Assembly (NCBI GenBank): GCA_964352335.1
Contig: CAYGRO010000007.1
Span: 361-64,360, forward strand
DNA length: 64,000 nt
Direction of reading: 5' to 3'
Origin: an uncultured Gammaproteobacteria bacterium
GTDB lineage: Bacteria > Patescibacteriota > Patescibacteriia > VMEV01 > CAYQCH01
Under the pieces are notes generated by a model that was not told the DNA's origin, did not search any database, and saw only the letters and a program-made list of their open reading frames with translations. A program made the translations under genes and the position numbers. Of the stretch, positions 1,202 to 55,598 are shown piece after piece; position 1 is the stretch's first letter; every line of letters begins with the position of its first letter.

Positions 1202-3202
1202 ATGCGTTTTCGTCAACTCGTCTCATCATTTCTCATTGTTGCTTTAGCGGTAACAGGGATGACTATTCCTACATCTGCTGCAGTCGACAGTGCAACAATC
1301 AATTATCTACAAAGCCAAGAGCAAAATAATGCTTGGGTAGTAATGGCACTTAGAGCAGGGGGGCAAACACCTTCTGCCAATCGTCTTTCTACTACACTGA
1401 ATTCTATTACAGATATAGAAAGAACTATTTTAGCTGTTACAGCTGCTAATCAAGACCCAACAAATTTTAATGGAGTGAACTTAATCCAAAAGCTCGATCT
1501 AGAAAGAAAAAATCGACAAATTGGAAGTACTACTCTTATTAATGACGATATCTTTGGTATCTTAGCCTATTATTCTGCAGGGATTCCTTTTACAGATTTA
1601 CGTATTGCGGAAAGTAAAGAATATATTCTCAATCATCAAAATAGTGATGGGGGATGGTCTCATTCTACTTCTTCACCATCAGACTCAAACGATACTGCGA
1701 TGGCAATTAGTGCGTTAATACGAGCTGGTGTTTCTCAAAATGATCCAGCGATTACAAAAGCAGTAAACTATATTAAAACAACACAAAATGATGATGGTGG
1801 TTTTGGTATTTCTCAAAATGCAGACTCAGATAGTGCTTCTACAGCATGGATTATTTCTGCTTTACAAACTGCAGGAAAAACACCGGCTTCTTTTACGAAA
1901 AATAATAAAACACCTTTCATGTTTTTAAATACTGTAAAGCATTCAGATGCTTCGTATAAATGGAAGGCAAATGAAGGTCGTGGAAATGCAACCATGACAG
2001 CCTATGTTGCTATCGCTTTAGCTGGTACCGGATATCCTGTTGCCACTCGAGCTGGTTCAACAACAACTTCAACAAATACAAGTACAAATGTTTCTCGAGT
2101 CGTTAATGATACAACAACAACGAATACACAACGAGTAGCAAATGATACAACGACAACAAATACCGTTCGAGTCGGTTCTCCAACACGAGGAGGGACTCAA
2201 GTAAACTTTAGAATCGAAGGAAGTCAAAATCAAATTTGTGAAGGAACTGCAACAGCGGCAAATCCATTAGATTTAGTAAAAAATGCGGCTTCACAATGTG
2301 GATATAGCTACTTTATCGATCAAACAAGTTTTGGTTCTTATTTGCAACGAGTAAATGCTGACCAAGCATCTGGTTCAAATGGATGGCTGTATTTAGTTAA
2401 CTGGACTCAACCTTCTGTTGCTGCCGATCAATATCAATTAAAAAATGGTGATTATGTCACTTGGTATTTCGGAGAATTCGATTGGAAACCATTAAGAGCA
2501 CAATTAATAAATGCATCTACAGCCCAACAACAAGGAAATGCCATTATTGAAGTTCAGCAATATCAAAGTGGTGCATGGCGTGCCTTTTCTGGAGCAACAG
2601 TGTATTTAACAGGTAGAACTGCTACAACCAATTCTTCTGGTCAAGCAAGTTTTTCTCTTCCAACCGGTTCTTATCAATTTTATGCAGATAGAGCGAATTA
2701 TATTCGTTCAGCGAAAGAAACTTTTAGTGTGAATACCGCTTCAACAAATACAACAACGACAAATACGAATTCAACGAATACAAATTCTTCAACAAGAATT
2801 AGTCGATCAGTTCCACTAGAATCAACAATTATTACAGACCGAGTGTATACGCAGAATACAAATACAACAACGTATAATCCAAATCCACCACAAATGTCAT
2901 TTTCTTTGAATCTAAGTGGTTCTACGACTTCCTTAGGTTTTGGTACACTAAGAGAAGGTCAAACAGCTACACAAAGTGTGACGGTAACAAATACAGGTAC
3001 GACAAGCTTATTAATGACGGCAACAGTAACAGGAGATGCCTTATATACAAATAACTTACGCTTAGATAATCAGTCTTGGGGAAGTTTTTCACGACGTATT
3101 AGTGTAAATAGCGCTTCTCGTATTGATGTATCATTAACTGTTCCTGTAAATTATTCAGACGGATACAAAAGAGGTGACCTCATATTTTGGGCGACTCAGT
3201 AA
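1202..3202 (+). CDS. Secreted multidomain protein: alpha/alpha-toroid (prenyltransferase/terpene-cyclase-like QxxDGGW repeats) + DUF4430-like domain + CarboxypepD_reg-like + beta-sandwich; Thr/Asn-rich linkers
   Basis: N-terminal signal peptide; repeated motifs NSDGGWSHS, QNDDGGFG; segment SNGWLYLVNWTQPSVAADQYQLKNGDYVTWYF homologous to C-terminus of the next gene; TNT-rich low complexity. Confidence 0.6.
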   Translation: MRFRQLVSSFLIVALAVTGMTIPTSAAVDSATINYLQSQEQNNAWVVMALRAGGQTPSANRLSTTLNSITDIERTILAVTAANQDPTNFNGVNLIQKLDLERKNRQIGSTTLINDDIFGILAYYSAGIPFTDLRIAESKEYILNHQNSDGGWSHSTSSPSDSNDTAMAISALIRAGVSQNDPAITKAVNYIKTTQNDDGGFGISQNADSDSASTAWIISALQTAGKTPASFTKNNKTPFMFLNTVKHSDASYKWKANEGRGNATMTAYVAIALAGTGYPVATRAGSTTTSTNTSTNVSRVVNDTTTTNTQRVANDTTTTNTVRVGSPTRGGTQVNFRIEGSQNQICEGTATAANPLDLVKNAASQCGYSYFIDQTSFGSYLQRVNADQASGSNGWLYLVNWTQPSVAADQYQLKNGDYVTWYFGEFDWKPLRAQLINASTAQQQGNAIIEVQQYQSGAWRAFSGATVYLTGRTATTNSSGQASFSLPTGSYQFYADRANYIRSAKETFSVNTASTNTTTTNTNSTNTNSSTRISRSVPLESTIITDRVYTQNTNTTTYNPNPPQMSFSLNLSGSTTSLGFGTLREGQTATQSVTVTNTGTTSLLMTATVTGDALYTNNLRLDNQSWGSFSRRISVNSASRIDVSLTVPVNYSDGYKRGDLIFWATQ

Positions 3203-3207
3203 GAGTT

Positions 3208-3317
3208 TACCTCCCCCTAACCCCCTCCTTATCAAGGAGGGGGAAGTATAATATCATGATGGACCTACGCATTATATTCCTTCCCCTCCTGTCTCAGGAG
3301 GGGATTGAGGGGAGGTA
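3208..3317. repeat. 110-bp MITE/REP-like palindromic element, copy A
   Basis: tacctccccctaaccccctcc...ggaggggattgaggggaggta terminal inverted repeats; second copy at 54757-54866 with ~85-90% identical ends and divergent centre. Confidence 0.6.
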
Positions 3318-3340
3318 TCTAATCGATAAATCAAATACCT

Positions 3341-4348
3341 ATGCTCAAACGACTTAGCTTTATCATCGCTTTCTTATCGCTCAGTTTGATTCCATTATCA
3401 ATGGTGTCTGCTGCAGGAATTGGAATTTCTCCTCAATCATTAGAGATTACACAATCTCCTGGTTCACAAACGGAAACAATGATCTCGGTTCACAATACAG
3501 GAGAAACAACAGCTCTTTACCAAATTTATGCGGACCAATACGAACGATTAATTTCTATCGATGGTGAAGAAATTCGTTTAGCTCCGGGTGAGGGAAGAGC
3601 GATCCCTATTACTGTGGGTTCATTTCCACCGGGAGAATTTACAACAGCAATCTCAATTGTTGCGACGGAAGTGTCGGTTGAAGATTTGCCTAAAACAGGT
3701 GTAAAACTTCCAGTCACAATCAATTCAGTATCACTTATTGAGCAGGGGCAAGCTAATATGATTCGTCAATATAGTTTATATTTCATTGCTTTTGCACTGA
3801 TTCTCTTATTACTAGCAATGTGGTTTCATTCTCGTCGATCAAAAATGCATAAACTGCTTGATACCGCTCAAGAAACATTGGCTAGTCATTCTCTCGAGCA
3901 AACAGCTGACCATTATAGAAAAAAACATCCACTTATTTTTATCAGTCTCTTAGCTTTACTTATTGCTGGTGGATTACTGATCTGGTCATTTATTGCCTCA
4001 GATCAACAGCCTGTAACGGTAGAGATTCAGCAAGGGGTCGAACAATATTCTGTAACAATTCAACATCCAAGTGGTGCAAAAATCTATACAGTACAATCAG
4101 ATCGAGCTATCTCTGCCTTTTCTGCTTTAGAACAAGTACGTGATCAATATGGAATCAGTTTAGCCTATGATCCACCAATTGAATTCGGAATCTTGGTCAC
4201 AGAAATTGATGGTTATACAAATGGGGAAGATGGGCAGTACTGGGTTTTTGAAGTAAATGGAAAACAAGTGCCATCAGCGGCAGATCGGACTCAATTACAA
4301 CCAAATGACCAATTAGTATGGAAATTTGTTATCCCGAGTGCAGAATAA
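3341..4348 (+). CDS. Membrane-anchored protein with C-terminal DUF4430-like domain (335 aa)
   Basis: Signal peptide, central TM helix, C-terminal GQYWVFEVNGKQVPSAADRTQLQPNDQLVWKF matching the corresponding segment of the upstream gene. Confidence 0.55.
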   Translation: MLKRLSFIIAFLSLSLIPLSMVSAAGIGISPQSLEITQSPGSQTETMISVHNTGETTALYQIYADQYERLISIDGEEIRLAPGEGRAIPITVGSFPPGEFTTAISIVATEVSVEDLPKTGVKLPVTINSVSLIEQGQANMIRQYSLYFIAFALILLLLAMWFHSRRSKMHKLLDTAQETLASHSLEQTADHYRKKHPLIFISLLALLIAGGLLIWSFIASDQQPVTVEIQQGVEQYSVTIQHPSGAKIYTVQSDRAISAFSALEQVRDQYGISLAYDPPIEFGILVTEIDGYTNGEDGQYWVFEVNGKQVPSAADRTQLQPNDQLVWKFVIPSAE

Positions 4349-5122: not shown

Positions 5123-5142
5123 TACTCCCTCCTAACCCTATT

Positions 5143-15530: not shown

Positions 15531-15537
15531 TTACTTG

Positions 15538-15596
15538 GCTAGTAGGAGGGTAGGAGAGTAGCAACTACACTCCTACCTTCCTACTCTCCTACTAGC
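15538..15596 (+). other. Very stable ~24-bp-stem hairpin between xseA and xseB (no T-tract)
   Basis: gctagtaggagggtaggagagtag-caactacactc-…ctactctcctactagc; 2 GU, 1 mismatch. Confidence 0.7.
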
Positions 15597-15660
15597 TAAA
15601 AATACGATGCCAAAAAAACAACTAAGGAATAACAACATTAACTATTAAACACCACAATAA

Positions 15661-23167: not shown

Positions 23168-23244
23168 TGATACGAATCTGCGAATACATTCGAATCTACA
23201 AATGGATTATTCGTAGATTAGCATACATTCGCAGATTGGCATCA
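23168..23244. repeat. Imperfect 32-bp-arm inverted repeat between dnaB and ybaB
   Basis: tgatacgaatctgcgaatacattcgaatctac / gtagattagcatacattcgcagattggcatca, 26/32 complementary. Confidence 0.55.
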
Positions 23245-54320: not shown

Positions 54321-54743
54321 ATGCTGTCTATCCATATTTACCAAGTCCAAAAAACAAAAGACGCTGATTTACAGCGGATGGTTTCTGATTTCTATAAACG
54401 GATTGGTTCTGCAAAGGTAGAAGAAGTCACATTTAAATCAGAAGAAGATATGGTAAAATCGCTTCCACAACGCGGTTTTTTTATTGCCTTGGAAGCAAAT
54501 GGTAAAATGCTTGATTCTGAGAAATTAGCGAAATTAATCGAAGAAAAGAAAAATCAAGGAATATCTTCCTTGTTTTTTTTAATTGGTCCGCCGGACGGCT
54601 TTACTCAAAAACCGGAATCAATCGATATGGAATTATCTCTTTCTGCCATGACATTTTCCCATCAAACAATTCGTTTATTACTTGCTGAGCAATTGTATAG
54701 AGCAACCGCCATCTTAGAAGGAAAGCCGTTTGCGAAACATTGA
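54321..54743 (+). CDS. rlmH: 23S rRNA (pseudouridine1915-N3)-methyltransferase RlmH (SPOUT)
   Basis: ~140 aa, SPOUT fold pattern; track ORF starts at upstream TTG (54291). Confidence 0.75.
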   Translation: MLSIHIYQVQKTKDADLQRMVSDFYKRIGSAKVEEVTFKSEEDMVKSLPQRGFFIALEANGKMLDSEKLAKLIEEKKNQGISSLFFLIGPPDGFTQKPESIDMELSLSAMTFSHQTIRLLLAEQLYRATAILEGKPFAKH

Positions 54744-54756
54744 TGTTTGGTCACTT

Positions 54757-54866
54757 TACCGCCCCCTAACCCCCTCCTAAGATAGGTGGGGGAAGAACAA
54801 AAATCTTGTGAAATCAATTTACTCACACCCTCCCCACCTATCTTAGGAGGGGACCGAGGGGCGGTA
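54757..54866. repeat. 110-bp MITE/REP-like palindromic element, copy B
   Basis: taccgccccctaaccccctcc…ggaggggaccgaggggcggta; t→g at pos 5 compensated by a→c at pos 106 relative to copy A. Confidence 0.6.
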
Positions 54867-54917
54867 ATTGACCAGCATCATCTAATAAAAACAACTCATA
54901 ACACATAACCCAACCCT

Positions 54918-55598
54918 ATGAAAGAACCAATCATTTTCTCACTCGGAGGATCACTCATTGTTCCTGATCAAATTGATGCGGACTTTATTAAGGCATTTAA
55001 AAAAATCATTACGGAACGATTAGATGAGTATCGACAATTCATTTTAGTTGCCGGGGGAGGGAAAACAGCTCGAAGATATATTTCTGCGGCACAAGAAGTG
55101 AATAATCCGGAAGATGAAGATCTTGATTGGTTGGGAATCCATTCATCAAGACTAAATGGGCATTTACTGCGAACGGTTTTAAAAGATTATGCCGACCCAG
55201 AAATGATTACTTCTCCAGAAAAGATGACTCCAAGAGATGCGAAGATTCTTGTTGGTGCTGGTTATCGACCTGGAAATTCTACAGATTATGTGGCGACATT
55301 ATTTGCGAAAGCCTATGGAATCAAAACGGTCATTAACCTCTCTAATATTGATCATGTTTACGATAAAGATCCATATAAATTTGAAGATGCTCAAGCGCTT
55401 AAAACAATCTCATGGGCTGATTTTCAAAAGATGGTAGGGAGTGAATGGGTGCCTGGAATGAACTCACCATTTGACCCTGTCGCAACAAAATTAGGGGCAG
55501 AATTAGGTCTAAAAGTAGTTGTCATGAAAGGAACTGACCTAGAAAACCTTGCTAATTATTTGGATGGAAAAGACTTTAAAGGGACCATAATTGGCTAA
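54918..55598 (+). CDS. pyrH: Archaeal-type UMP kinase (amino-acid kinase family)
   Basis: 226 aa; GGS…DFIK, VAGGGKTARRYI, C-terminal GT.IG resemble archaeal PyrH. Confidence 0.7.
   Translation: MKEPIIFSLGGSLIVPDQIDADFIKAFKKIITERLDEYRQFILVAGGGKTARRYISAAQEVNNPEDEDLDWLGIHSSRLNGHLLRTVLKDYADPEMITSPEKMTPRDAKILVGAGYRPGNSTDYVATLFAKAYGIKTVINLSNIDHVYDKDPYKFEDAQALKTISWADFQKMVGSEWVPGMNSPFDPVATKLGAELGLKVVVMKGTDLENLANYLDGKDFKGTIIG

Follow-up and report, generated by a model that had tools for sequence, protein, structure and literature searches.

Two intergenic palindromes resembling BoxC/PIT/TMECO repeats in a Patescibacteria-like genome, and the association of their building block with DUF559 endonuclease genes

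The 64-kb stretch of contig CAYGRO010000007.1 analysed here (the window, 64,000 nucleotides) carries two intergenic elements of 110 bp, copy A at 3208-3317 and copy B at 54757-54866, each an inverted pair of a short three-block repeat unit. The unit has the block order and the mirror rule of the BoxC/PIT/TMECO triplex-motif repeats of Escherichia coli but another sequence, and we therefore place the window elements in that class as a different-sequence member; they are very probably inserted members of it. Elsewhere, genes of the DUF559 endonuclease family are preferentially bracketed by units of this kind, and the best explanation of the observations as a whole, which we consider likely, is that of BoxC-like inserted unit pairs linked to DUF559. 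The initial annotation, made from the letters of the window, had described the two elements as structured, intergenic repeats related to repetitive extragenic palindromic (REP) sequences or miniature inverted-repeat transposable elements (MITEs); their sequences are exactly as it quoted them, and its description holds, with empty sites at both loci of relatives pointing to insertion.

The repeat unit and its kinship to BoxC/PIT/TMECO elements

The building block of both elements is a unit of ~38 nt, made up of a head, (T)ACC-W-CCCC, a linker of 2-5 nt and a hairpin, CCCCTCCT-loop-AGGAGGGG. Its G-rich strand (CCCCTCCTTATCAAGGAGGGGG..GGGGAGGTA) presents in turn a pyrimidine block, a loop, a purine block, a linker and a mirrored purine block. 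A covariance model had been suggested by the initial annotation as a structural check, and such a model, R1, built from 57 units of other organisms and none from the window, recovered exactly four units in the 64 kb (E values from 2e-15 to 1.5e-8) and nothing else at E ≤ 10. The four units and their parts are as follows.

Copy A, 3208-3317, unstranded: heads-out inverted pair of two units, unit matches 3206..3319
Copy A, 3206-3244 (+) and 3281-3319 (-): R1 matches of 53.1 and 46.6 bits
Copy A, 3208..3217, + strand: left head TACCTCCCCC, the third (Hoogsteen-type) block
Copy A, 3221..3243, + strand: left hairpin CCCCCTCCTT-ATC-AAGGAGGGGG
Copy A, 3244..3282, unstranded: spacer, 39 nt, AT-rich
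Copy A, 3283..3303, + strand: right hairpin CCCCTCCTG-TCT-CAGGAGGGG
Copy A, 3307..3317, + strand: right head GAGGGGAGGTA, the right unit's mirrored purine block, of reverse-Hoogsteen type
Copy B, 54757-54866, unstranded: heads-out inverted pair of two units, unit matches 54755..54868
Copy B, 54755-54793 (+) and 54830-54868 (-): R1 matches of 36.9 and 32.0 bits
Copy B, 54757..54766, + strand: left head TACCGCCCCC, with G at position 5, compensated by C in the right head
Copy B, 54770..54792, + strand: left hairpin CCCCCTCCTA-AGA-TAGGTGGGGG, with a local T.T mismatch, perfect only against the right arm
Copy B, 54832..54852, + strand: right hairpin CCCCACCTA-TCT-TAGGAGGGG, with a local A.A mismatch, compensated against the left arm
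Copy B, 54856..54866, + strand: right head GAGGGGCGGTA

Both copies share one anatomy, namely a head of 10 nt, a linker of 3, a hairpin of 23, a spacer of 39, a second hairpin of 21, a linker of 3 and a head of 11. The left head reads TACC-N-CCCCC, with TAA as linker, and the right head GAGGGG-N'-GGTA, so that the outer stem, TACCNCCCC/GGGGN'GGTA, constitutes a pair of terminal inverted repeats; the left head of copy A is at once a mirror of the pyrimidine strand of its hairpin and a Watson-Crick partner of the right head. The left arms of the two copies are 83% identical over 46 nt and the right arms ~83% (manual count). The arms of copy B, 36 nt long, are 86% complementary, and its inverted repeat extends outward, with one bulge (TGGTCA..TGACCA), to about 54748-54875. 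The 39-nt spacers agree at 17 of 39 positions (manual count), and the centres, which had been called unrelated, are thus largely but not wholly so. Because the window has a GC content of ~36%, the C-run and G-run islands of both copies stand out; the 16-mer CCCCCTAACCCCCTCC, at up to three mismatches, has three matches in the window against 0.16 expected, and the hairpin pattern has four against 0.02. The solo half-site previously proposed at 5123-5138 is best discarded: it matches the head at 13 of 16 positions, for which the chance expectation is 0.18 per window, it has no hairpin, R1 does not report it at E ≤ 10, and relatives lack it.

Copy A lies between a 666-aa DUF4430/prenyltransferase-like gene (stop at 3202) and a 335-aa DUF4430 gene (start at 3341), and copy B between rlmH (end at 54743) and an archaeal-type UMP kinase gene (start at 54918). 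All four genes are on the + strand, and both copies are intergenic. Homologues labelled Doudnabacteria, Moranbacteria or Patescibacteria, together with DUF4012 and DUF6580 genes, point to a Patescibacteria-like lineage for the window. The 666-aa gene itself contains, just upstream of copy A, tandem coding repeats at 2096-2167 and 2744-2887, with periods of 36 and 15 nt (ACAAATAC-type; Thr/Asn-rich by reading).

The BoxC/PIT/TMECO repeats of E. coli and other Enterobacteria are reportedly treated also by Bergler (1992) and by Hoyne and Maher (2000). The three names denote one element, with the consensus CCCTCNCCC N3-6 GGGNGAGGG N3 GGGNGAGGG, which forms a class II purine-motif intrastrand triplex, as judged by circular dichroism and nuclear magnetic resonance (Holder et al. 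2015, PMC4666352). Strain MG1655 has 23 intergenic copies, including five inverted pairs, the set being strain-variable; the element is without promoter or terminator activity, is on record from Proteobacteria alone and from neither phages nor plasmids, and no mobility genes were found with it ('We never found ... transposases or integrases'), whereas its loci are linked to higher local variability and a promotion of local recombination or variation has been proposed (PMC4666352).

The window units share with these repeats the three-block layout, a loop of 3-7 nt, a linker of 2-5 nt and A or T opposite the A.T pair. They likewise form G/C-rich, always-intergenic islands that occur solo or as inverted pairs, are present in some and absent from other related genomes, and bear no promoter or terminator signature. 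The sequences differ, CCCCTCCT/AGGAGGGG/GGGG(W)GGT as against CCCTCNCCC/GGGNGAGGG/GGGNGAGGG, and the window units, which read CCCCTCCT..AGGAGGGG..GGGG(A/C)GGT, do not match the TMECO consensus. Further differences are the host, which is Patescibacteria-like with ~36% GC, the occurrence of the unit family in many phyla and on phage contigs, and the behaviour of copy B, which breaks the triplex rule while retaining Watson-Crick symmetry; for the window units the triplex is predicted from sequence only. As to pair polarity, four of the E. coli TMECO pairs are heads-in and one heads-out by our reading of Table 1 of PMC4666352, and the window copies are heads-out.

A generic mirror-block finder (7-nt stems, perfect rules) returned only the two arms of copy A from the 64 kb and placed the right one at 3282-3316 (+). 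Over 118 units the variable base of the head is T in 61, A in 54, G in two and C in one; T or A, both of which are permitted opposite an A.T pair in the purine motif, thus occupy 115 of the 118 heads. The length of the C run in the head tracks that of the G run in the purine strand (odds ratio 7 at p 2e-5, with p 0.008 for solo units; values that ignore shared ancestry), a co-variation compatible with a triplex. Where the stems are asymmetric the third block is mirrored in 82 cases and direct in 10, the cleanly asymmetric types numbering ~26 against 3. The mirror relation is also kept in variants with other stems, such as the unit of phage SuMu (TCTCCCCC-TAA-CCCCCTCT..) and the 'type 2' units of Nitrospira.

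The unit occurs solo, as one hairpin with heads on both sides (~48 nt), and as pairs that are either heads-out (the window, L001, L007, L042, L117 and L125) or heads-in (L147). A pattern derived from the four window arms matched nine sites in IMG/VR contigs of 48-63% GC, and the closing GGGGNGGTA is present in these and in other double elements, although the pattern did not force it. With variable gaps the pattern found at least 120 loci in GTDB species genomes. The hosts among the matches listed include many Nitrospirota, Saccharibacteria, Paceibacterota, Nomurabacteria, Elusimicrobia, Acinetobacter, Thiomargarita, the Bacteroidota Spirosoma, Hymenobacter, Odoribacter and Prevotellaceae, Geobacter/Desulfuromonadales, anammox Planctomycetota (Scalindua/Brocadia), Acidobacteriota, Terriglobia, Gammaproteobacteria, Patescibacteria and others. 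A hairpin-only scan of viral contigs, which left the flanks unconstrained, gave many hairpins with ACCACCCC 2-5 nt upstream or GGGGTGGT downstream. BLAST of the element gave no match to plasmids and, among phages, nothing beyond a variant unit of Haemophilus phage SuMu and a match in a Microcystis phage that is put down to chance. The novelty that had been claimed for the element does not stand: its unit occurs at the 120 or more genome loci in many phyla and on phage contigs, and its layout is that of E. coli BoxC/PIT/TMECO.

Several of these loci have features of their own. The 11-kb IMG/VR contig 3300008255_004712 (L147), a putative viral contig, has an unusually high density of 12 hairpin units, in heads-in pairs ~85 nt apart. 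The Nitrospirota double elements L012, L022, L034, L038, L050 and L115 differ from simple inverted repeats: CCCCTCC-TTACAAA-GGAGGGG forms the left hairpin and CCTCCCC-TTTGTAA-GGGGAGG the right, with mirrored stems and complementary loops, so that the left head can pair with the 3' strand of the right hairpin and the loops could kiss. On IMG/VR contig 3300005804_000120 (L005, 996-1103) a match to the type II hammerhead ribozyme (43.8 bits against an Rfam gathering threshold of 37) has a complete repeat unit (TACCTCCCCCC..GGGGGTGGTA) as its stem III, a 47-nt insertion relative to the model.

Insertion and folding

The closest relative has a UMP kinase with 89% identity and keeps the gene order over 20 kb; its rlmH-pyrH spacer is empty and measures 36 nt, as against 174 nt in the window. 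At the site of copy A the spacers of two relatives, whose orthologues of the 335-aa DUF4430 protein are 67% and 55% identical, measure 28 and 19 nt, as against 138 nt in the window, and R1 found no unit at the orthologous loci of the relatives of either site. Since the spacers are short and empty where relatives share the gene order, both copies appear to be insertions, several independent losses being less parsimonious. The right flank of copy A (TCTAATCGAT..) aligns with the entire spacer of L273 (TCTCGATT..), which would place the insert directly after the stop codon and include in it five extra bases (GAGTT). The relative with the 67% identical orthologue carries a different variant of the double element elsewhere in its sequence.

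A 2-bp target-site duplication such as TA had been suggested. In all family members, however, the TA is part of the inverted repeat TACC..GGTA, and a related single unit, for which there is a clean filled/empty polymorphism of ~98 nt between flanks 86-88% identical, has the ends CACAAAATA/CACAAATAC and no TA duplication; the suggestion is therefore unsupported, the flanks of the window sites being too diverged to show a duplication.

The rlmH-pyrH spacer is an insertion hot spot. In other relatives it holds, at L270 (2818-2998), two ~100-nt copies of a different repeat (..GTCACCCTGAGCCTGCCGAAGGGTCTCATC..), and at L271 and L272 (2588-2956) a gene for a 23S_rRNA_IVP/bAvd-like four-helix bundle with flanking CTAAAAC-type repeats.

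Positions 5 and 106 are T..A in copy A and G..C in copy B, confirming the compensatory change of the initial annotation, which had overlooked a second one. In copy B the 3' strand of the left hairpin has A changed to T (AGGTGGGG) and the 5' strand of the right hairpin T changed to A (CCCCACCT), preserving the pairing between the arms and disrupting both local hairpins. Copy B is thus perfect only as a long inter-arm hairpin and copy A as two local hairpins, and the earlier statement that each arm also folds locally is true of copy A but has to be qualified for copy B, with one local mismatch per hairpin (T.T and A.A). Both elements are predicted to fold far more stably than shuffled sequences: for RNA the z-scores on the two strands are -5.05 and -5.32 for copy A and -9.95 and -8.96 for copy B, and for DNA they are -5.2 and -9.4, no shuffle equalling either element.

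Selection on the folded structure had been argued from the compensatory change. The two changes support arm-to-arm complementarity, but inter-arm repair of the palindrome would give the same pattern without selection on an RNA fold. Across other units the pair that closes the hairpin loop covaries (UA 30, GC 7 and AU 6, counts that ignore shared ancestry), and in five of 16 other double elements the variable head pair N/N' is T.T (manual reading).

The predicted stability on both strands, the two compensatory changes and the position of both copies between co-directional genes would also fit a cis-acting RNA structure selected by the host in a polycistronic transcript, either as a processing or stabilizing hairpin or as a translational control in which CCUCC sequesters GGAGG; at many other loci AGGAGGGG indeed lies 5-10 nt ahead of a start codon. 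We nevertheless regard this explanation as improbable. Relatives in which the gene order is identical lack the elements in the orthologous spacers, the neighbours are unrelated both at the two window sites and across the 120 listed loci, the orientation of the units is mixed, and the next start codon follows the window elements at distances of 24 and 52 nt, too far for a Shine-Dalgarno sequence. Neither element has a promoter or terminator signature, a terminator-like site or a U tract after the hairpin. In Rfam the element falls below the gathering threshold of every family, the sole gathering-level match of the window being tRNA-Lys, and at E ≤ 10 it gives only sub-threshold matches to microRNA-precursor hairpins, which we take as noise. 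No dedicated host function was seen for the elements; side effects may come from a highly stable structure, in RNA or DNA, that separates co-directional genes, and from Shine-Dalgarno-like GGAGG blocks. A cis-regulatory leader with a common upstream or downstream gene was rejected as well, the neighbour genes being heterogeneous and the units lying in either orientation across the listed loci.

Two other intergenic repeats of the window may be recorded here. Directly after the stop codon of a 425-aa open reading frame (ORF), at 15535-15599, lies a palindrome whose 27-nt arms are 85% complementary, the first rich in purines and the second in pyrimidines (TAGTAGGAGGGTAGGAGAGTAG / CTACCTTCCTACTCTCCTACTA); it lacks a T tract. 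An inverted repeat at 23168-23244, with 36-nt arms that are 81% complementary and a gap of 5 nt (TGATACGAATCTGCGAATACATTCGAATCTACAAAT / ..), lies just beyond the annotated start of a 504-aa ORF on the minus strand.

DUF559 genes bracketed by inverted units

All 2006 ORFs of the 120 listed genome loci were clustered into families. The recurrent families were two-component signalling proteins, ABC transporters and only one other, a small (~110-140 aa) DUF559/Vsr-like protein (PF04480, E ~1e-30). Units directly abut five of the six DUF559 genes in the motif-selected genome loci, the hosts being Nitrospirales, Terriglobia, Patescibacteria, a Pseudomonadales metagenome-assembled genome (MAG) and 'Psychracetigena', and also the one at viral locus L153; a single DUF559 gene in ~0.9 Mb of motif-selected loci has no abutting unit. 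Typically the ATG follows a unit at 0-13 nt, and the 3' end of the ORF runs through the head of an inverted unit, giving the protein a C-terminus of the form ..T(T/S)PP..L. At L059 and L022 a complete heads-out pair, as in the window, lies immediately upstream of the gene, and some flanks of the window sequence type occur among L022, L059, L118, L121 and L153.

ORF calls that read through units were seen at 6972-7020 of L109 (a Patescibacteria MAG) and for other DUF559 ORFs, giving recurring peptide tails that read ..FPLLDQEGLGEVV.. N-terminally or ..T(T/S)PP..PLL..EGG C-terminally. 'Hypothetical proteins' with tails of this form may point to these repeats.

The association was also seen when the gene was taken as the starting point. 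Among 68 metagenomic DUF559 loci chosen by protein similarity alone (35-52% identity to the Patescibacteria protein), 39 carry the strict three-block motif no more than 130 nt away from one end of the gene, and the motif is far denser close to the gene (76 matches in 23.7 kb) than farther off (16 in 61 kb). Stem sequences vary between these loci and include both BoxC-like (GGAGAGG/GGTGAGG) and window-like (GGAGGGG/GGGGAGG) types; of the viral DUF559 loci, 11 of 18 have flanking C-run/G-run repeats. Two loci of one metagenome, L315 and L316, have in common a 535-bp segment, 94% identical, in otherwise unrelated surroundings. This cassette consists of a DUF559 ORF between ~65-nt perfect terminal inverted repeats, each comprising a three-block unit and 14 outer bases. 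DUF559 genes are thus preferentially bracketed by inverted units, and at least one cassette has moved or been copied.

E. coli itself offers an instance. At L276 (K-12, NC_000913.3 1351200-1351830) ycjD, a DUF559 gene, has a degenerate BoxC-like unit at its stop codon; beyond it on the same strand come a duplicated piece of the gene's own 3' end and, 168 nt downstream, TMECO #9. The latter carries CCCTCGCCCCTCTGGGGAGAGGGTTAGGGTGAGGGG, of which E. coli genomes have a median of 15 occurrences. A 16-bp perfect palindrome lies just upstream of the ycjD start.

Other DUF559 loci show different arrangements. At L308 (173-646 and 1068-1340) at least eight three-block units stand in tandem, with a 55-nt period, directly upstream of the gene, and more follow downstream. 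The IMG/VR contigs L248-L256 (4-9 kb) are a conserved small putative viral or prophage-like set with a DUF559 gene, on either side of which stand inverted repeats of different sequence, built as [head][small hairpin][main hairpin]; upstream there is a GAACA-N7-GAACA-like direct repeat resembling an alpha-proteobacterial LexA box. A triplex order, pyrimidine or purine, was considered for these alpha-proteobacterial-type flanks and rejected, the linker-less block order being sterically implausible.

Profile comparison relates DUF559 to the DUF559 structure PDB 3HRL (E 1.5e-29) and to I-Bth0305I, a homing endonuclease of the Vsr fold (PDB 3R3P, E 0.005). Like the Vsr-fold homing endonucleases of the EDxHD family and free-standing homing genes, the DUF559 genes are small and selfish-looking, occupy variable positions and occur on phage contigs; unlike these, their cassettes are not borne by introns or inteins and are bracketed by structured inverted repeats, and a homing role for DUF559/YcjD is our inference from sequence. 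On this footing the DUF559 nuclease might recognize the folded unit, as a hairpin, cruciform or triplex in single-stranded DNA, and cut at or near it. The break would then be repaired from a filled copy, in a homing-like manner, or excision and insertion would follow, with units, pairs or whole cassettes being copied. Units and pairs without a gene, those of the window included, would be non-autonomous (internally deleted) derivatives of DUF559 cassettes or their empty target sites. In the alternative direction, a DUF559 gene would home into pre-existing repeats. That DUF559 is the mobilizing enzyme of the units falls, in our estimation, slightly short of an even chance.

A number of observations weigh against the reading of the window elements as triplex-motif repeats inserted through a link with DUF559. 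The 64-kb window holds no DUF559 gene, so copies A and B would have to rely on a nuclease encoded elsewhere, or be fossils. Most units have no such gene nearby (more than 110 of the 120 listed genome loci and 114 of the 115 viral loci), and conversely 29 of the 68 DUF559 loci lack the strict motif and seven of the 18 viral DUF559 loci lack flanking repeats. The window pairs are heads-out, whereas in the clearest cassettes (L153 and L315) the units are heads-in around the gene. The association is also silent on causal direction, and DUF559 genes might merely prefer to insert into such repeats. At the window sites the filled and empty flanks are too diverged for a duplication or an exact boundary to be read. 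With regard to the triplex, one position in each arm of copy B does not conform (C/G for the head; T.T or A.A for the hairpin), although Watson-Crick pairing is kept; the implausible block order of L248-L256 means that not every repeat of this kind can be read as a triplex; the statistics on run length and covariation ignore shared ancestry; and triplex formation may be irrelevant.

These points have to be set against the rival accounts. One would have non-B-DNA sequences (triplex or cruciform) arise and decay locally and be kept for local recombination or variation, with no mobilizing enzyme. The greater local variability of TMECO loci and the lack of a transposase near them (PMC4666352) fit such a view, as does the rlmH-pyrH hot spot, with its different inserts in different relatives. 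De novo origin, however, cannot account for near-identical 38-nt units across phyla and phages, and it leaves unexplained both the 94%-identical cassettes in unrelated contexts and the strong, gene-specific association with DUF559; we hold this account to be about as improbable as a cis-acting RNA.

A mobilization of REP sequences, or of their doublets (REPINs), in which a REP-associated tyrosine transposase (RAYT), or a Y1 transposase of the IS200/IS605 type, works on single-stranded hairpins, has our units' general appearance in its favour. There, too, short hairpins with a conserved flanking head form inverted doublets that give long hairpins, many copies are intergenic, a small nuclease gene is flanked by inverted units, and some copies of our unit start with CTAC and finish with GTAG. 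Yet no Y1 transposase family recurs among the 2006 ORFs, in which the sole recurrent nuclease is DUF559, a Vsr-like PD-(D/E)XK enzyme and not an HUH/Y1 one, and no RAYT was seen; moreover, the head (T)ACCWCCCC lies on the opposite side from the GTAG/GTGG head of REP sequences and differs from it in sequence and polarity, the window copies starting with TTAC. We regard this origin as very improbable.

A classical MITE with a DDE transposon (IS630/Tc1-mariner-like, for example) as its source, inserting at and duplicating TA, for which the length of ~110 bp, the terminal inverted repeats, the TA at both ends of both copies and the empty sites in relatives could be cited, is just as hard to credit, since the TA lies within the conserved inverted repeat TACC..GGTA and is not a flanking duplication, the inverted repeat of copy B continues 9 nt outward, TA is not duplicated in the clean filled/empty pair of the related unit, none of the listed loci showed a DDE transposase with such ends, and solo units would be unexpected of a MITE that depends on terminal repeats. 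The likeness to MITEs such as Correia, RUP and Nezha accordingly goes no further than a non-coding, intergenic body of ~100-150 bp with terminal inverted repeats and a predicted long hairpin; there is no demonstrable target-site duplication and no DDE parent, and the building block also occurs solo, at ~38-48 nt.

Implications for the repeat class and for DUF559 proteins

To our knowledge, the origin of the BoxC/PIT/triplex-motif repeats has gone unexplained since the 1990s. The bracketing of DUF559 genes by these repeats appears to be new; PMC4666352 does not mention it, and we found no paper linking the two, subscription journals lying outside our coverage. We would venture, as a tentative proposal to which we give rather less than an even chance, that from E. 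coli to Patescibacteria and phages these repeats are the terminal repeats, gene-less derivatives or homing sites of unrecognized small mobile elements whose sole gene is DUF559 (YcjD-like, Vsr-fold), its product recognizing the folded unit, and that the palindromes of the window are non-autonomous members.

Repeats of the BoxC/triplex-motif kind are shown here in genomes of the candidate phyla radiation and on phage contigs, the core being almost the same from one phylum to the next. The element alone is one more family of short structured intergenic repeats, and the DUF559 lead is the more useful result, because it bears on two old questions, namely what spreads the repeats and what YcjD and other DUF559 proteins do. 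If the proposal is true, DUF559 would be a new class of enzyme for mobile DNA, beside the RAYT-REP system.

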